The position numbers and the translations under genes are program-made. Below, one piece after another: positions 1,090 to 62,831 of a DNA stretch of 64,000 bases. The stretch's first letter is position 1. The number at the start of each line of letters is the position of its first letter. The stretch spans positions 1-64,000 of the IMG/VR virus record IMGVR_UViG_3300013772_000003; one strand, given 5' to 3'. The notes under the pieces are model-generated. The model ran no database searches. It was not told the origin of the DNA and saw only the letters and a list, made by a program, of their open reading frames with translations. Source of the DNA: a virus.

Positions 1090-4000
1090 TTATTTACAAC
1101 CTAAATTATTTAAAAAATCTTCTGTTACCTGTGCTGTTGTTTTCTTTTCCGCAGCATCTGCAACTTGTTTCAAGCGGTTAACATCCTGAGTAAAATCAGT
1201 AGTCTTTTCCTGATTTGTTTTAATCAATGTTTTTTCTGCCGGCGTTACTGTTGTTTTTGCTTGCTTCATGTGTGCTGTGTATTTAATATCATCCATCGTA
1301 ATATACCGATTATCTCCTTGTATTGGTAATCCGTTTACGTAGAAACCTTCTACATGAATTTTTCCGTTCTTGCTGCTCACACTCTTAATTTGTACATCCT
1401 GATACTTAGAATTTTTCAAAGTAACTACATCACCTTTTTTCAAAGTAGAAATATCAATCTTAGAAAACAACTCTATGTTTTTTGCTTCGATAGCTTCCGC
1501 AACATATTCATACCAACCGTCTACCGGAGGAATGGTTCCATCTACAAGCGCTTTTTCTACTTCCGCTTTCAACGCCTCTAATTCATCTTCCGTTTTAATA
1601 GCATCTAACTTACCTTGTAAATCAAACTTCTCGATAGCTGCTTCGTGTGCGGCTTCCTCTTTTTGTTTTACCTCTGCAAAACTTGGATTAACTTCTTGTC
1701 TTTGGAAATCTATAACCTCTCCGTTTTTAGAAGGCTCGTTCTTTACAAACAACATTCCAAGATTACCGTCATTCTTACTTCCGTTCTCTTTGTACGCTTT
1801 CAGGAGCTGTACAACGTTTGAGTGCGTCATAATACCTCCGCCGTCTGAAAGAGCGTTTGTTATCTCAGGAAGCGCTGTCAAGACGCGATCTTTAAATTCA
1901 TTGAATGACTCTACGGATTGTCTATCTGCGTAAATCTCTTTTAAAGGTTTACCTTCTGCATTAACATCTTCTCCTGCATAAACTTTTTCCTCTGGGTGAA
2001 GTGCGAACCAAGAATCAATTTTGTGCCAATCCTCGTCGGGTATTCCTGCAAAACCTGTCTTATCGTCACCGGTGTTCCAAGGATCTAATGCTGCGTTTTG
2101 TTCTACAACTACGTCCTTGCCTTTTTTAGCAACCACTTCTGCGGAGTCTATAGCACGCTGTCTTGTAGAAACAATTATCTTGGTTAAGGTCTCATCTACA
2201 TTTCCTTCTGCACCGTCTTCTACGTGTTTTTCTCCTTCAGGAGTAATATGTTCCTGTGTTGGACCAGAGTTAATTCCTTTTTCATCCTCTGCGGTTTCTC
2301 CGTGACGGAAGATTCTTATTTTACCGGTTGCGGTTTGGATGAAGGTTGGTTTGGTTGTTTCAACTGGTTCTTCTTTCGATTTTAAATCTTTAAGGTTAAA
2401 GTAGTCTGTAACAATATCAGCCGCTTTTTTGTAGTCAACACTATCTACCGGAATTGGAGTATGTGCCTGCGCAGCACTTACAAAATTATCAGGCAGTTTA
2501 TTCTCTTTAAAAATTTTATCCAATCCTTTATCATCTATCCAATAGCCTGCATCATGTAAATCATTTAATAAAGCATTTGCGTCTATATTATCACGGTATT
2601 TCTTATAAGCAGCTTCAAAGTTCTCCACACGTTTATCATGTGTTGCTTTGTTTACCTCAGCTAATATTGAAGCAAAGTCCATAAAATGATGCGGATCATT
2701 AAGCACGTTTACCGCCTTAGACAAATCCTTAGAATCTTGGTCAAGCGCATGAAAATCTTTTAAATTATCAAACGTACTTTTTATCTTTTCGTTAAACACA
2801 TGATCATCATTTTTCTTAGCGACCTTCTTAATATAACTTTGGTAAGAATTATAAAACTCCCTTTCTGCGGTATGTAAAAAATGTTCTTTTTCAAGTCCCT
2901 GTATTTCTCCCTTAGTTTCTAAGCGTTCTACACGATGTCTTTTATACTTCTTACCGTTACTAAGCAAAACGCTTCTACCTTGTACTGCTTTTACAAACCC
3001 ATGTTCACCACTAATAGTTTTAACTCTATCCCCAACTTGAATAGCCATGCTTTTCTTAAACTCCACAGATACTTCCGGCTTACGTCTCTCCTCAGAAACC
3101 AGAGATAATGCGTGCTTGTACATCAAAGTATTTTTCAGAATGTCTTCCGCGTTTTCAGCTTGCTCTTTAGTTTTTCTATACTCCGCTTGACTTCCCGGAA
3201 TACCTTTTAACGCCGCCGCTTGATCCTTTAGCATCTTGACATTCTGAGCAAGGTCTTGTACATTAAACAAAGAAGTATAATCCCCAGAAACCCCCTTTGA
3301 AAGAGGAGTGTTTGTACTCGCCTTGTCTGTTATAGCGCCCATCCTCTTGAGCGTCTGATTAAACGAGTGTGCAGAATATATAGCTACTTTCTGTGCGTCA
3401 TCAACTGCCTTCCAACGATGGGATTCTGTTATATATTTGTTCTGACGTTCTTGATACTGAACCTCTGTTTCTTTTTTTGTTTTTTCTCCTGCGTACTTAT
3501 TTGGATCAAATTCATTTTTAAATTGCTCCTTTATAACATCGTGCCTCTTTTGCAAGTAATCAAGATGCTCAACCGTTTCGTTGATTTTTCTCCTGATTGT
3601 TTTATCATCCGTCTGCTCTCCAAACGCGGCTTGCAAATCCTTTCCTTCCAACTTCGACATATCATTGAAGTAATCCTTCAACATCTCCGTCTTACCTGCT
3701 TTTGTTACATTGTATAGATGATTGAATAACGCTTCATCCTGAATATCCAAGAACTGTTTTTTGTCTCCACTCTCCTGCGCACCCTGCATATCCTTCTTAG
3801 CTTCGTACTGAGTCGCCATGTTCTCAGTAAAAGAATTATGTAATTGCTTCGGATCGTTCGCTAATTCGTTTATCGAATTCTCAACGGTAGCAGTAAATTC
3901 TTTTTTATATGCTTTTGCTTTTTCAAAACCAACTCTATCCTTTAAACGAGCAAGGCTCATTGAACCATATTTGTACAGGAGATGTTGTGGTGCTTGTATA

Positions 4001-12783: not shown

Positions 12784-12807
12784 TTTATTGTTGGTTTTTG
12801 TTGGTTA

Positions 12808-18177: not shown

Positions 18178-18214
18178 CTTATTTTTATTTGTTGGTTTCT
18201 ACAAATGTAGTAAA

Positions 18215-23331: not shown

Positions 23332-24429
23332 TTATCTACTAAGTGATGCACCCGAAGCTGCGGAATAATCAAAACCGTTATAACTCGAAAACATGGAGTA
23401 ATATTTGTTCCATTGTGCCTTCCTGTTTACAACGTACATCTCATTCATCTCCGTCCAGTTAGGTGTGCGCACAATTGCTTTTGCAGCCCCCTGAGCAATC
23501 TTTCTCTTCTCAGTGAAGTAATGCAACTTCTGTACCATATCCTCCCCCTGCATCATTAGATTTTCACAAATTCTTTCCTTAAGGGCATATTGGTGAAATT
23601 CCGAAATAACTTCGTGATCAGGAACCAATAAATTTCCCTCTTCGTCCTCAAGCATTCCTTCGTATGAGAGATAGACTTGTCCGCAACCATTGTTATGATG
23701 CCAGTTGGTGTACAACCACCCATCTTTAATCCACGCTTCATCTGCGGATCGCATATACAAACCCGGACAGCCGCACTCTATGCCTTGAGCATTGTTTATA
23801 AAACGTAATGGGTGCAGGTGGTTATAAGTCCTTGTGCCGGTACTTACCTTTTGTATTACTTCTACACAATCCCCTTTACAGTTCAGGAAGACTCTTGGTT
23901 TTTTCCACCAGTCCCCACCCGGTTCTTTTGGATTGAAAACAGCTTCCTCACAAACATTTGTTGGAGCACATGAACACGGAGTTGCTCCGCATCCACAAGA
24001 AGGAGTTGCTGTCTGCAACACGGCTGTACCACATCCACAGGGAACCAAATGACAGTTAGAACACACTACCGGAGCAGCACAAAGATTAACAGAAGCAGGT
24101 ACAGACCGCACTTTAGGAATCAATTTCTCTTCAAGATGGGTTCCCTGCGGCACTACAAAAGTTTCTGTATGACTTCCGCACATCATTGCAAAATTCACAG
24201 TATAAAAGTCTTCTGGAAGTCTAACTCTCCCCTTCTCCAAATCAAGTAGAGTTTCTTTAGTTTTATAGATACGCAGTCCTAATATATAATTACACCTGCG
24301 AGCAACACGTATCAAAGACGCAGGATCAATAAGGTTCTCCAAGGCATACGCAGAAAAGTCAATACGTACGTCACTTAGAAGTTGGTCAAACGTCTGGTAC
24401 TTTAAAGTATAGTTAGAAATTCCTGACAT
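23332..24429 (-). CDS. Tail ring / tubular protein with Cys-rich insertion
   Basis: 365 aa; RVRLPEDFY and DEEGNLLVPD motifs; immediately upstream of muzzle. Confidence 0.75.
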   Translation of the reverse strand: MSGISNYTLKYQTFDQLLSDVRIDFSAYALENLIDPASLIRVARRCNYILGLRIYKTKETLLDLEKGRVRLPEDFYTVNFAMMCGSHTETFVVPQGTHLEEKLIPKVRSVPASVNLCAAPVVCSNCHLVPCGCGTAVLQTATPSCGCGATPCSCAPTNVCEEAVFNPKEPGGDWWKKPRVFLNCKGDCVEVIQKVSTGTRTYNHLHPLRFINNAQGIECGCPGLYMRSADEAWIKDGWLYTNWHHNNGCGQVYLSYEGMLEDEEGNLLVPDHEVISEFHQYALKERICENLMMQGEDMVQKLHYFTEKRKIAQGAAKAIVRTPNWTEMNEMYVVNRKAQWNKYYSMFSSYNGFDYSAASGASLSR

Positions 24430-24433
24430 CTGA

Positions 24434-25105
24434 TTACTGTTTAAGTGCAGAAATATTATCTGCTGCTGGTTCTTTCGGTATCTGAATTGTTCCTAATAAA
24501 TCATTCTTCACATTCTGCTCAATCTCTGCAAATAAATATTCCGGTATATGCGTCTCCTCATCCTGTGCTAACTTGCAAGGATCGCCACAACACAGATATT
24601 GTTCTACGCTGTTTTCAGGAAGTACTTCCATCTTCGCCGCGTCCCACTCAATATCCGGAAAATAAACCTTCTTATCTATAAACCAGTAGTAATGATTTTG
24701 GTTGTATTTGTAAGTAGAGGAGTTAGCAATGTCCACAAACGTTGCAGGATTTGTTTTAATGCAAATAATGGAGCCATCAATTGAAGTAATAGAACGAAAC
24801 AGCGGACCATACGTTCCTTCAAAAATATCAGGCAAGTCCTCCTTAGTTCTTTTGATAGTACATCCTGATTTGATTCCACCGCAACACGCAGCTACTTTGT
24901 CGACCTCTTCAAGCTCTACACAAGGAAGTGTTACAAACAGACTCTGAAATTTCATTATCTTGTTCTGATCATCAAGTCGCTTCAAATATAGTTTAGCATA
25001 CTTTATAGCAAGAGAATATAAGAAACGGTCTGTCAGGAAAGCATCTTGTTTCGCCGCCTTCACGATGTTTCTCATTCTTGATATGGTATCTCTTCTTCGC
25101 TGCAT
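24434..25105 (-). CDS. Tail ring protein
   Basis: 223 aa; TLPCVELEEVD...C...KRT..DLP, YYW..D..VYFP; crAss-like synteny. Confidence 0.75.
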   Translation of the reverse strand: MQRRRDTISRMRNIVKAAKQDAFLTDRFLYSLAIKYAKLYLKRLDDQNKIMKFQSLFVTLPCVELEEVDKVAACCGGIKSGCTIKRTKEDLPDIFEGTYGPLFRSITSIDGSIICIKTNPATFVDIANSSTYKYNQNHYYWFIDKKVYFPDIEWDAAKMEVLPENSVEQYLCCGDPCKLAQDEETHIPEYLFAEIEQNVKNDLLGTIQIPKEPAADNISALKQ

Positions 25106-25743
25106 TAAATTATACCGTCAAATTCATTGTAAGTTAATAACAATTCCGCAGCCTGCTTCATTGCAAATTCTTTTTTATAAAACTTATCTTTACGCCAACG
25201 CATAGCTAAATCTTTTTTAGCAGGGGAGAAGTAGGTACGGTTTGCATCAAACATTTTTCCTATTATTCGCAGGTGCTTTTTGAATACTTTGAACTCCCAC
25301 AAATACTTATTAGGCATGTCATAACTATCAGAACTAATGTCCAAAGATACCAAAGGAAAAATTCCCCCTCCTGTGTTCACTCTATTATGAACAACAACTC
25401 CTAACCTCGCAGAAGCAACATCAGCTATCCGTTTTCTTTTACCTTTTTTTACAGTCACAACCTGCAATTTACCCATACGATTGGGTAATGTTACTCCTGC
25501 ACGACTATCAATAGCTGCTTGCATCATGTTTTCATTAAATGCTTGCAAAATGGAAGTAAGCTCTGCGTCTTTTAATTTACATTCTTTGTGTTCAGCGCGA
25601 AATTGTTTATGTGCAAACGTAGGCGCCTTCCAGTTATTCCTATCATCCAATACTCCAATCTTGTTCTTCCTGACTCCTTTCACAGAGTCCGTAAATTTAG
25701 GCGCTTTCGGATGTGCGGGCGTATATGGAGTAAACTCATTCAT
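25105..25743 (-). CDS. IHF/HU-like DNA-binding protein
   Basis: 212 aa, basic; helix + GVTLPNRMGKLQVV arm; conserved position upstream of ring proteins in crAss-like phages. Confidence 0.65.
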   Translation of the reverse strand: MNEFTPYTPAHPKAPKFTDSVKGVRKNKIGVLDDRNNWKAPTFAHKQFRAEHKECKLKDAELTSILQAFNENMMQAAIDSRAGVTLPNRMGKLQVVTVKKGKRKRIADVASARLGVVVHNRVNTGGGIFPLVSLDISSDSYDMPNKYLWEFKVFKKHLRIIGKMFDANRTYFSPAKKDLAMRWRKDKFYKKEFAMKQAAELLLTYNEFDGII

Positions 25744-25755
25744 ATTTTTCTCTTC

Positions 25756-25835
25756 TTAAACAAAACCCCCGAGCAAAACGCTCAGGGCTCTGCTATTAAC
25801 TCAAAAGCAAAACCAACAGATGCTCGAGCAATATT
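25756..25835 (-). ncRNA. Candidate antisense sRNA 'B': hairpin with CUGUUGGUUU loop followed by intrinsic terminator
   Basis: UAUUG-CUC-GAGCA[UCUGUUGGUUU]UGCUU-UU-GAG-U-UAAUA, then CCCUGAGC[GUUUU]GCUCGGGG-GUUUUGUUU; loop complementary to AAACCAACA upstream of many genes. Confidence 0.65.
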
Positions 25836-31496: not shown

Positions 31497-31528
31497 TGTA
31501 TGTTGATTTTTGTTGGTTTAATTTTATT

Positions 31529-35179: not shown

Positions 35180-35209
35180 TTTGTTTTTGTTTTTATTTGT
35201 TGGTTTAAA

Positions 35210-36235: not shown

Positions 36236-36257
36236 ATTGTTGGTTATTTGTTGGTTT

Positions 36258-37318: not shown

Positions 37319-37370
37319 CTATTATAGTTTTATAATGACGTTGGTTTTTTAAATTTTTTATACTTCTTTT

Positions 37371-38479: not shown

Positions 38480-40114
38480 TCACATACTAAAACCCGTAAT
38501 TGGGTTCTTCAACGTGATTTTTAATATCTTACTCGGATCTTTTACCCAAACCGCTTTGTGAGCCTGCTGCATAAACACTCTGAATCCAGAGAATTCTCCG
38601 CTTGACTGATGTCCATTGCGACCTAAGTAGTCCATAGTACCGTTTTGGTATCTCCAACGTAAAGCACCAGCATCTCCTTCTTTTTGTAACAGGAAGATGT
38701 TGTCGTTCGTGTTGTTAGTTACGTCAAAAATCAAGAAACTATAAGAAGATAATGGATACCCGTCGATCAACGGATTCTCAATATCGTTCGTGTTAAAGTT
38801 GTCTAACGCCGGGTTAATTTTGAAAGTCAAATTAGCCAAGAAAGGAATTTTGTACTTAGTGTACGCATATCCGAATCCTAAGTTCATGCTCTGACCTTGG
38901 ATTGCTCCGATACCGTCTTTCTCCGCTGCTTGGATAAGGAATCCAGCACTTGCTGCTTCCTGCGCGATAAGTTCGTTTACCATACGCATTCCTCCCATAC
39001 CTGTTTGCACTTCGATTTCGCGAAGAGAATCAGGACCGGTTAAACCCACACGACCCGCGTAGAAGTTGTATAACTGAGAACGGAATAAATCAAGAGAGAA
39101 GCTTGCTTTGTTGTAAACATATTTGTATGCGCTGTCTAACTGCTTCCAAAGACCAGTTGACATACGTAAATCATCAGCACCATCGCGCTGAATACGTCCA
39201 CCTTTACCCCACATCAAATAAGTTTCGATGTCAAGAGCCACTTTAGAAACGTGAGCCGCTTCCATTGCAGTTAAGAAAGTATAAGATAAACGTCCATCAG
39301 CATAAGCGTCTTTCATATACGCACCACCTTTCTTCGCTTTTAACTGCTCAAGAGAGGTGATTGTTGCGATTGAAGGATCGTTTTTATCCTTGATGTTCCA
39401 AATTTCTGTTACGTTTAACGCCCCTTGTGCGCTTACTCCGTTTTTTGCCATTAAAGCTGCACGATCAGTCACTGTAAAGTGAGCGTTAGCATCAGTTTGC
39501 CCAACGAAGTTGTACCACTGACGAGCGCCTGAACGAATCGAAACGTCATCATATTTACCCGGATACTCTCCAGTAGCACTTGTTACACGAAACACCTTAG
39601 TTCCATTAGCAAGATACTTATTATCCAAGAAATTTACGTTTGCGTTATTCACCAAACGAACTGTGTAAATAAATCCATCACCTATTGGTAAAATAGGATC
39701 AGCAGTCACATACATCTCAGCACCGTTGAATTTATCGAAGGTGAAGATTGCGCTGTGACCAAACTCCTGACGGTTTAATTTCACACGGAAAGTGCTTCCG
39801 TCAATACCTTTTGTGGTATTTGATGGATCAATGTCCTCAATGATATAAGGAAGATCCTGAGAAATTGGAGTTTCCCAAGTATATTCTCCGCGAATACCGG
39901 CAACTTTGATTGTGTTTTTTCCTCCAAAAGAAGAAAATTGATATAAAGGCATCTCGACTTTTTGAGTCATTGCCCAAATATCCACAGGACCTAAATCCAT
40001 AGGTTTCACATCATGCAACATATTGCGCATGTGGTAAGAGTCAATGTGAGAAGACGCATTCAGTGTTGTGTCTCGTAGGAATATCCCCGAGCCGGAGAAA
40101 TTAGGAGTTGCCAT
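38480..40114 (-). CDS. Major capsid protein
   Basis: 544 aa; crAss-like MCP features (ETYLMWGKGG, STGLWKQL, TGMGG, VWVKDPS); order portal-scaffold-MCP. Confidence 0.9.
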   Translation of the reverse strand: MATPNFSGSGIFLRDTTLNASSHIDSYHMRNMLHDVKPMDLGPVDIWAMTQKVEMPLYQFSSFGGKNTIKVAGIRGEYTWETPISQDLPYIIEDIDPSNTTKGIDGSTFRVKLNRQEFGHSAIFTFDKFNGAEMYVTADPILPIGDGFIYTVRLVNNANVNFLDNKYLANGTKVFRVTSATGEYPGKYDDVSIRSGARQWYNFVGQTDANAHFTVTDRAALMAKNGVSAQGALNVTEIWNIKDKNDPSIATITSLEQLKAKKGGAYMKDAYADGRLSYTFLTAMEAAHVSKVALDIETYLMWGKGGRIQRDGADDLRMSTGLWKQLDSAYKYVYNKASFSLDLFRSQLYNFYAGRVGLTGPDSLREIEVQTGMGGMRMVNELIAQEAASAGFLIQAAEKDGIGAIQGQSMNLGFGYAYTKYKIPFLANLTFKINPALDNFNTNDIENPLIDGYPLSSYSFLIFDVTNNTNDNIFLLQKEGDAGALRWRYQNGTMDYLGRNGHQSSGEFSGFRVFMQQAHKAVWVKDPSKILKITLKNPITGFSM

Positions 40115-41475: not shown

Positions 41476-41491
41476 GTTGGTTTAGTTGGTT
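41476..41491 (-). promoter_or_regulatory. AACCAAC translation-initiation-region motif, tandem pair (representative)
   Basis: Also at 12790, 12800, 18191, 31512, 35199, 36239, 36250, 37340, 51300, 53810, 57120, 61666. Confidence 0.8.
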
Positions 41492-51296: not shown

Positions 51297-51384
51297 GGAG
51301 TTGGTTTTATGTCCCAAAAATAATAAACAATGTGTTATTGTTAGAAAAAAGTTTTTAACAACGTGTTTTTATGCAGAAAATAAA

Positions 51385-53808: not shown

Positions 53809-53830
53809 AGTTGGTTTTTTACAAATATAA

Positions 53831-57115: not shown

Positions 57116-57124
57116 ACTTGTTGG

Positions 57125-57364
57125 TTATATATTGGGATAATGAGCTGTTATGTATGCCTGTGCAGCAGCTTGCAATTTTGTATCAATCTCAACTTGTGAA
57201 TCAGTTTTTAAAAAGTTGAAGGTGCTTAACTGTTTAGAATAAAAGTCAGAATAAGCATTTCCAACTATATTCGAAATTACCACTATCTGCCAATCGCGAC
57301 TTACTCCATCTTTGTTGTCTACAGGAGCACCAACTACATTTGCATCTTTTAATTCGTAGGTCAT
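57125..57364 (-). CDS. Tail-fibre partner protein
   Basis: 79 aa; DNKDG...QAAAQAYITAHYPN. Confidence 0.65.
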   Translation of the reverse strand: MTYELKDANVVGAPVDNKDGVSRDWQIVVISNIVGNAYSDFYSKQLSTFNFLKTDSQVEIDTKLQAAAQAYITAHYPNI

Positions 57365-61596: not shown

Positions 61597-62000
61597 ATTG
61601 CAAAGGTAGGAAAATATTGTACAGCAAAAAGCCGGTACTATTATTCCCGAATCAAAAAATCCCATGTTGGTTATGTGTTGGTATAAGGCAAAGATAGAAA
61701 AATTTTTTTATATAATTTTTTTTGGTACTTTAAAACCTATGTACAGGGTCGTGTTTAGCTTGTACCCCCCTACTCACCGGCACCCCAAACCAAATGGGCA
61801 CCCTACCCCCACCTCTTAAATAAACTCAATCCTATAGTATAGGGAATTATCCAAAGAGACTCCTTTTCTTGTCCAGAGAATATTCTTTATTTGAATAGCT
61901 TGTTCTCTTCTTATGATATGTTATCTACTTCAGGATATTCTTTGTTGTTCTTATCCTTGCCTCGCTCCTTGATTGTATATTAGTGATTACCCCGCGTTTA

Positions 62001-62752: not shown

Positions 62753-62831
62753 AATGATCGAGCCAGTGGAGTGGCTTAGTTGTTAGAGTACAGCGTTCCA
62801 AGCTTCGGTTTGGGCGCTGTTTCTTTTTATT
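62753..62831 (+). ncRNA. Candidate antisense sRNA 'A': hairpin with GUGGAG loop followed by cUUCGg intrinsic terminator
   Basis: AAUGAU-C-GAGCCA[GUGGAG]UGGCUU-A-GUUGUU, then ACAGCGUUCCAAGC[UUCG]GUUUGGGCGCUGU-UUCUUUUU; loop complementary to ACUCCAC upstream of structural genes. Confidence 0.65.

Follow-up and report, generated by a model that had tools for sequence, protein, structure and literature searches.

The bacterial small RNAs CpxQ, SroC and DapZ derive from 3' untranslated regions (UTRs), where each lies between a stop codon and the intrinsic terminator of its own mRNA, and they use a short conserved seed against several mRNAs near their start codons. A different arrangement is exemplified by RNAIII and RsaE of Staphylococcus aureus, in which a short motif exposed in a loop is complementary to a motif shared by the ribosome-binding regions of many mRNAs; the C-rich loops of these and other RNAs pair with Shine-Dalgarno sequences. 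Phages also encode RNAs of this general kind, since the c4 antisense RNA of P1/P7 and sar of P22 are structured small RNAs produced from the phage's own operon, with loops complementary to sites in ribosome-binding regions. Two further phage systems bear on the present case: the nut/boxB site of lambda, a small hairpin with a specific loop that is read in nascent RNA just upstream of a terminator, and the T4 RegA protein, a single factor acting at the initiation regions of many phage mRNAs. The Crassvirales are among the most abundant phages known. To our knowledge their hosts, the Bacteroidota, do not use Shine-Dalgarno pairing, and we know of no Hfq-type system in this phylum. The literature that we searched on crAss-like phages contains no regulatory RNA with a defined target set and nothing similar to the element described below, while unexplained abundant non-coding RNAs have been reported for phi14:2 (bioRxiv 10.1101/2020.03.07.982082).

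The hairpin, its terminator and their conservation

The window considered here, meaning the whole 64,000-nt stretch of DNA that was analysed, corresponds to the first 64 kb of an IMG/VR record of 74.8 kb, which comes from a soil metagenome. The public runs listed as holding this DNA are four DNA runs belonging to one soil study, with no RNA run among them. Family matches to Crass_capsid (capsid gene, 38480-40114, minus strand) and to crAss ring proteins 2 (24434-25105) and 1 (23332-24429) mark its source, as judged from these genes, as a distant crAss-like phage. Almost all genes of the window lie on the minus strand, and many are preceded by TAnnTTTG boxes, which we take to be promoters of the Bacteroidota type. 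No Rfam family matched the 64-kb window at its gathering score, no tRNA or tmRNA was found in it, and a search for a phage bS21 gene was likewise negative.

The element under study fills most of a spacer (25744-25835) between two minus-strand genes. Upstream is a Cys-rich gene (25836-27059/27134, minus strand; stop codon 25838-25836) with weak PHROG matches to virion structural proteins and with homologues in the relatives L090, L092 and L093; the element forms its 3' UTR, in agreement with the sequence-only reading, an earlier annotation of this DNA that had placed it behind a Cys-rich structural gene. Downstream is a gene for a protein of 212 aa belonging to no known family (25105-25743, minus strand; ATG at 25743), which is followed by ring proteins 2 and 1. 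In both the minimum-free-energy and centroid structures computed with RNAfold, the minus-strand transcript of 25833-25794 forms a 13-bp stem with two small bulges, closed by the 11-nt loop UCUGUUGGUUU (25810-25820). The 5' arm spans 25821-25833; the 3' arm, 25794-25809, contains the bulges, one of 2 nt and one of 1 nt. Within the loop are the octamer GUUGGUUU (25817-25810) and, inside it, GUUGGUU (25817-25811). The hairpin is abutted with zero gap by an intrinsic (Rho-independent) terminator (25757-25793, minus strand), recognizable by its 14-bp G+C-rich stem, the loop GUUUU and the following UUUUGUUU, and ranking as the top terminator-like site in an 18-kb scan. These folds and coordinates reproduce what had been described earlier, namely an inverted AACCAAC carried in an 11-nt loop on a stem of about 13 bp directly before a terminator. 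The element has a fold energy of -27.8 kcal/mol (z = -2.44), the plus strand folds less well, and the loop octamer has a mean unpaired probability of 0.89 in the window's ensemble, an exposure that the sequence-only reading had proposed to examine with RNAfold. On the plus strand the box is followed, from 25808 onward, by an antisense ORF of 11 codons, which was discarded on account of its lack of conservation.

A lone inverted copy of a motif in one intergenic region would be insignificant by itself, and it is the comparative data that raise it above chance. A search with the capsid protein supplied the relatives (more than 599 IMG/VR contigs, roughly 63% identical). Of 20 long records, 15 have the downstream gene in a distantly homologous form (about 26% identity), and in all 15 a hairpin stands between the upstream stop codon and that gene, consisting of a 6-9 bp stem and a 10-14 nt loop, (U)UUGUUGGUUU, followed by a terminator. 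A covariance model built on these 15 found one strong match per record in 19 of 50 records, the others being fragments, and exactly one match in a complete 126-kb genome. In the model alignment GUUGGUUU is invariant among the 19 IMG/VR homologues and the window, 94.9% of the stem cells are paired, and five of the seven pairs have changed on both sides; when the partners were slid by 1-3 columns as a control, only 23-57% of cells were paired. Both the constancy of the loop and the covariation of the stem, which the earlier annotation had named as tests of its proposal, are therefore borne out. The first covariance model missed the window copy because its stem differs, a longer and distinct stem surrounding the same loop; this copy is thus itself an example of a structure maintained although its sequence has changed. 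More than 117 IMG/VR contigs carry one 17-mer version of the element.

The association with a terminator is equally persistent. One follows the hairpin in 15 of 15 syntenic homologues and in the cultured phage Lbo-JY46, and a strong terminator does so in 67 of 79 usable further loci. The intervening distance is 5-12 nt in every homologue examined in detail, with a spacer that is semi-conserved only as (U)AACAA or UGACA. The order of Cys-rich gene, hairpin, downstream gene and ring protein 2 is also retained: every relative has ring protein 2 on the downstream side, and in at least three subclades the Cys-rich gene lies upstream. In the window some 14 nt separate the terminator tail from the downstream ATG, and this interval (25744-25760, minus strand) contains no TAnnTTTG promoter box, so that expression of the downstream ring, tail and cargo genes seems to depend on read-through. 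The relatives differ in having a promoter-like TAnnTTTG box behind the terminator, which would make read-through unnecessary there. Almost all of them (L082-L096) also show a conserved leader element, ATTTTTNGTATATTA, which comes after a TAnnTTTG box and some 20-60 nt ahead of the ATG of the downstream-gene homologue; the window lacks this element.

A divergent carrier is Lbo-JY46 (PP438436, L123), whose capsid protein is only 29% identical. Its element, an A/U stem around UUUGUUGGUUG with a terminator, is located in a long spacer 1.7 kb upstream of ring protein 2, and the loop core reads GUUGGUUG as against GUUGGUUU in the IMG/VR relatives and the window. A homologous hairpin was not found in four more distant phages (phi14:2, phi17:2, Fpv1 and csAssE-Sib). 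Searches of GenBank phages with the locus or the downstream protein (blastn, tblastn) gave no match, the downstream protein or its alignment retrieved no related loci from viral, metagenome and genome collections, and no relatives of the Lbo-JY46 ring protein were found in IMG/VR. Two incidental observations concern these genomes. The recorded host of Lbo-JY46 is the cyanobacterium Leptolyngbya boryana, yet the phage carries Bacteroidota-type TAnnTTTG boxes before virion genes (3960-3990 and elsewhere) along with its crAss-like ring and capsid genes, and the recorded host may therefore deserve a check. In addition, under the standard code 46 ORFs in 70 kb of G001 and 73 ORFs in 97 kb of G007 pass a simple gene filter (L289-L297), a low yield that may reflect the stop-codon reassignment known in some crAss-like phages.

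Whether the loop might be sequestered had been raised in the sequence-only reading as a point against its own proposal, and here the outcome is mostly in its favour. In 9 of 12 folds the octamer is exposed, with unpaired probabilities of 0.77-0.97; the values are lower in L084, L087 (0.17) and Lbo-JY46 (0.38). In these three the spacer (U)AACAA(A), situated after the hairpin in L087 and L084 and after the terminator in Lbo-JY46, is able to pair with the loop's 5' half, and the predicted interaction may represent a self-masking alternative fold. A universal pseudoknot between the loop and an AACAA spacer was rejected, as it is not found in all homologues.

The leader box and its complementarity to the loop

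AACCAAC occurs 31 times in the window, as compared with an expected 11.5 +/- 3.2, and 15 of its 21 coding-strand copies lie 0-21 nt before an ATG, where they front 12 genes and are in tandem in three cases. It is the top leader 7-mer of this genome (13 leaders, 34-fold). Tandem boxes, all boxes listed here being on the minus strand, are found at 41476-41491 in the leader of the gene immediately upstream of the capsid gene (ATG 41469), at 36239-36256 (ATG 36235, 341 aa; predicted duplex with the loop, -11.0 kcal/mol) and at 12790-12806 (ATG 12783, 147 aa), where the proximal copy offers 10 loop-complementary bases; the leaders of 41469 and 36235 had already been named as bearers of the motif in the earlier annotation, and the tandem arrangement adds to that statement. 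Single boxes are located at 37340-37346 (21 nt before ATG 37318, 338 aa), 18191-18197 (ATG 18177, 76 aa), 31512-31518 (ATG 31496, 64 aa), 35199-35205 (19 nt before ATG 35179, a 40-aa ORF and putative gene), 51300-51306 (ATG 51296, 78 aa), 53810-53816 (1 nt before ATG 53808, 92 aa), 57120-57126 (4 nt before ATG 57115, 116 aa) and 61666-61672 (abutting ATG 61665, 109 aa). The capsid gene and most phage genes have no such box. Two of the boxes, in the intervals 53810-53830 and 18191-18212 (minus strand), begin 4-5 nt after a TAnnTTTG box and may thus sit at the very 5' end of the primary transcript.

The same motif dominates leaders across the clade. Among G+C-containing 7-mers, AACCAAC shows the strongest leader enrichment in the 1.2 Mb that surround the capsid genes of 80 relatives (136 of 1043 ORFs, 28.7-fold). 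For AAACCAAC, the complement of the loop octamer, 116 of 263 sense copies have an ORF start no more than 20 nt away (39-fold). Positions 3-7 of AAACCAAC barely tolerate change, and the flanking A residues give a consensus of roughly AAAACCAACAA, which mirrors the usual loop UUUGUUGGUUU and extends the complementarity to about 11 nt. The distance from box to ATG shows a sharp peak at 3-6 nt (maximum 4-5 nt), and in relatives the box is also found in the orthologous leaders that flank the capsid gene on either side. On the other hand, genomes that keep the loop differ greatly in how many boxes they have, with about three in G007 and no AACCAAC leader at all in Lbo-JY46. G-U-compatible changes are not favoured among box substitutions (0.066 vs 0.053), and with this neutral result G-U tolerance was dropped as a proof of RNA pairing. 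GUUGGUU is depleted on the sense strand of relatives (39 observed, 60-132 expected), which is a weak signal.

The box is phage-specific in the sequences that we compared. In three Bacteroidota genomes, serving as stand-ins for the host, the box followed by ATG is at control level only, which led us to reject it as a host signal. GUUGGUU is absent from the 16S rRNA of 14 Bacteroidota, also stand-ins for the real host, and the 16S complementarity expected of a Shine-Dalgarno-type element is accordingly missing; AACCAAC in turn is absent from 16S, and from most 23S sampled, in these Bacteroidota rRNA operons. Pairing of the box with rRNA was rejected for want of a site in the sampled rRNA, and a phage bS21 was set aside as a cause of phage-specific initiation because the gene is absent. 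In passing, we noted that the only GUUGGUU match in the rRNA operons of most Bacteroidota sampled belongs to a tRNA encoded in the spacer, in whose D-loop it lies (CAGUUGGUUAGAGC; L234, some 213 nt beyond the end of 16S), and that some phage loops, AGUUGGUUUA, resemble this D-loop.

Predicted pairing between loop and leaders was assessed by counting the leaders that reach -10 kcal/mol or lower with each genome's own loop and with shuffled versions of it. This genome has 22 such leaders (shuffled, 4.1 +/- 2.2; maximum 11 of 100), G003 has 14 (4.4), G001 has five (0.6) and G007 has three (0.7); in Lbo-JY46, five leaders against 3.2 for shuffled loops represent no excess. In G001, G003 and G007 the genes flanking the capsid gene count among the best predicted targets. 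In Lbo-JY46 the two capsid-flanking orthologues rank 1 and 3 of 156 leaders, a rank sum equalled by only 1 of 300 loop shuffles. A recurrent best predicted target is the gene immediately upstream of the capsid gene, which the sequence-only reading had called a scaffold. The duplexes have a core of 7-8 bp, are A/U-rich and amount to about -10 to -12.5 kcal/mol with the opening cost not included; at a cut-off of -8 kcal/mol, shuffled loops already match 24.5 of 94 leaders. Taken at the level of sequence, the locus offers what is looked for in a small RNA: a conserved structured element with its own terminator, an accessible seed, and complementary initiation sites above chance.

A second pair of this type is present in the same genome. 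A companion hairpin and terminator (62753-62831, plus strand) has the 6-nt loop GUGGAG, complementary to a leader box, ACUCCAC, that is found in six leaders (33-fold) and, in this genome only, is placed 0-6 nt ahead of the start codon in the capsid, portal and further core genes; neither the GUGGAG hairpin nor the ACUCCAC leaders were found in G001, G003, G007 or Lbo-JY46. A putative third pair, in G003 (CCTTAA), was rejected, as the motif is contained in a long promoter-like repeat before early genes and its "hairpin" is a piece of a terminator. In that genome (L287-L288), at about 119.6-125.5 kb on the plus strand, some dozen small genes each carry, 4-14 nt ahead of the ATG, a repeat some 22 nt long, TTAAATTAATATTAAYCCYTAA, which looks like an early-promoter family.

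Interpretations of the loop and its boxes

The reading that we favour, with moderate confidence and from sequence comparison and modelled folds, is that the element is an anti-leader regulatory RNA whose loop pairs with the leader boxes. On this proposal the terminator-ended hairpin would close the 3' end of the Cys-rich virion gene's transcript and would present GUUGGUUU single-stranded, for pairing with AAACCAAC just upstream of the start codons of 12 genes in the window, the most consistent putative targets being the genes that flank the major capsid gene. The paired boxes would lie at about -4 to -15, inside the ribosome landing zone, and such pairing could therefore tune translation, and possibly stability, relative to neighbouring cistrons on the same late mRNAs. 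The RNA might act in trans, as a stable 3' fragment shielded by the terminator hairpin, or equally possibly in cis, inside a long polycistronic late mRNA; an RNA merely co-transcribed with its targets would be outnumbered by their boxes. Repression appears the more likely sign, and is the default expectation for known loop-seed RNAs. The 3-6 nt spacing to the ATG suggests, nevertheless, that the box may also have a role of its own in initiation, so that the sign of regulation is not fixed; this tight spacing, the weak A/U-rich duplex, the neutral G-U test, the variable number of boxes and the partial sequestration of the loop all count against a simple repressor. We infer, in short, that such an RNA would accumulate, pair with its leaders and, more likely than not, lower their translation. 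The sequence-only reading, which envisaged feedback limiting the AACCAAC-tagged genes, is supported in part.

Several other readings compete for the same observations. An antitermination or attenuation site of the nut/boxB kind, at which a phage or host factor would read the invariant loop on nascent RNA and set passage into the ring, tail and cargo genes, the leader match being secondary, is unlikely. A specific-loop hairpin upstream of a terminator, as such sites have, is what is seen here, 5-12 nt from the terminator in all closely examined homologues and with a strong terminator in 67 of 79 further loci; an invariant loop on a stem free to vary in sequence is typical of hairpins recognized by proteins, the loop is retained in genomes with few or no boxes, and the virion genes downstream in the window need read-through, with no promoter box in their approximately 14 nt. 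However, this reading leaves unexplained that the sharpest leader motif is matched by an exactly complementary loop, that a second hairpin/leader pair exists and that the capsid-flanking leaders are top-ranked even in Lbo-JY46, and it has to contend with the promoter-like TAnnTTTG box after the terminator in relatives and with the want of a named protein candidate or boxA-like element. Quite unlikely, in our estimate, is that the box is a phage-private ribosome-binding signal read by the hairpin RNA as a positive adaptor, which would aid the hand-over of tagged phage mRNAs to ribosomes that disregard Shine-Dalgarno sequences, or would protect these mRNAs. The Shine-Dalgarno-like tight spacing (peak at 4-5 nt) and the tandem copies would suit this idea, as would the lack of a complementary site in Bacteroidota 16S rRNA, the disuse of the box in three Bacteroidota genomes and the absence of a phage bS21 that might otherwise account for phage-specific initiation; yet it has no precedent, nothing in the RNA suggests a part for docking on the ribosome, the tests on 16S and host genomes relied on stand-in hosts, and the capsid gene, like most phage genes, has no box. 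A bolder variant, which we hold just as doubtful, makes box and hairpin together a phage-private translation code, in which the hairpin RNA would read AAACCAAC in trans where ribosomes ignore Shine-Dalgarno sequences; it would, as a surrogate anti-leader, admit tagged phage cistrons to initiation or rank them, and GUGGAG/ACUCCAC could be a second, orthogonal channel evolved in this genome.

The conserved partner of the loop could instead be a host RNA or mRNA, with phage leaders merely resembling the host site. We consider this very unlikely: the loop is indeed kept across phages with 29%-identical capsid proteins, and in Lbo-JY46 it persists without AACCAAC leaders, but AACCAAC is absent from the 16S and most 23S sampled in Bacteroidota rRNA operons, three Bacteroidota genomes show no excess of boxed starts, and the best partners in Lbo-JY46 itself are phage leaders. 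Slightly more improbable still is that AAACCAAC acts as DNA, serving some phage factor as promoter or operator and yielding mRNAs almost devoid of a leader; the loop would then be one inverted copy of this site. At the DNA level both motifs are the same site in opposite orientations, a fixed distance to the ATG would suit a start-site signal, and two boxes come just after TAnnTTTG; against this, conservation around the box is confined to about 11 nt, tandem copies 9-11 nt apart and boxes in tight operon junctions would be odd for promoters, the stem covariation favours a folded single strand, and no conserved antisense ORF or unit departs from the loop. A hairpin promoter of the N4 type, used by virion RNA polymerase and recognized by a 5-7 bp stem, a 3-nt loop and several copies upstream of early genes, was ruled out by the 11-14 nt loop, the single copy per genome and the location at the 3' end of a virion gene. 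Finally, an ordinary 3' stabilizer hairpin beside a terminator, complementary to the leaders by chance, is extremely unlikely. U/G-rich loops do pair readily with A-rich leaders, as the 24.5 of 94 matched by shuffled loops at -8 kcal/mol attest, but an invariant 8-mer loop would be unexpected in the face of 26-29% protein identity, and its exact complement is the top G+C-containing leader motif; the existence of two independent loop/leader pairs, one of them co-distributed, together with that invariance makes chance very unlikely. The anti-leader reading accounts better than any rival for the combination of complementarity, second pair and recurrent targets.

Comparison with known systems

The circuit proposed is a compact one, in which a single invariant 8-nt loop would face one sharp box at about a dozen gene starts. 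If the capsid-flanking targets are true, a phage could by this means set the ratios of head-assembly proteins encoded on one long mRNA, and the circuit would bear on how mRNAs are selected for translation in Bacteroidota. As a cultured carrier of the hairpin, Lbo-JY46 makes bench work possible.

In lying between a stop codon and the intrinsic terminator that belongs to the same mRNA, and in its short conserved seed with several mRNA targets near start codons (here predicted), the element is like CpxQ, SroC and DapZ. Unlike in those RNAs, where the seed is a linear 5' stretch, the phage seed is in a hairpin loop, and the producer and predicted targets are all phage genes, known here from sequence alone. 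Exposure of the seed in a loop, and its complementarity to a motif shared by ribosome-binding regions, are properties held in common with RNAIII and RsaE; the target differs in being a private box, AAACCAAC, with no 16S partner in the Bacteroidota sampled, and the duplex is A/U-rich. The resemblance to lambda nut/boxB lies in the small specific-loop hairpin just upstream of a terminator, but the loop has 11 nt rather than 5, many leader sites are complementary to it, and neither a boxA nor a named N-like protein accompanies it. With the T4 RegA regulon it would share the principle of one phage factor acting at the initiation regions of many phage mRNAs, with the difference that RegA is a protein reading loosely defined A/U-rich sites, whereas the factor here would be a candidate RNA and its box is sharp. 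Like P1/P7 c4 and P22 sar, it would be a phage-encoded structured RNA from the phage's own operon with a loop complementary to ribosome-binding-region sites. The c4 RNA, however, controls a single operon (icd-ant) and with it immunity in temperate phages, whereas the present case concerns a lytic-type crAss-like phage and about a dozen dispersed predicted targets among virion-module genes. We therefore present the element as a candidate phage anti-leader RNA with a phage-private box, resembling 3'-UTR-derived and loop-seed small RNAs as well as P1 c4.
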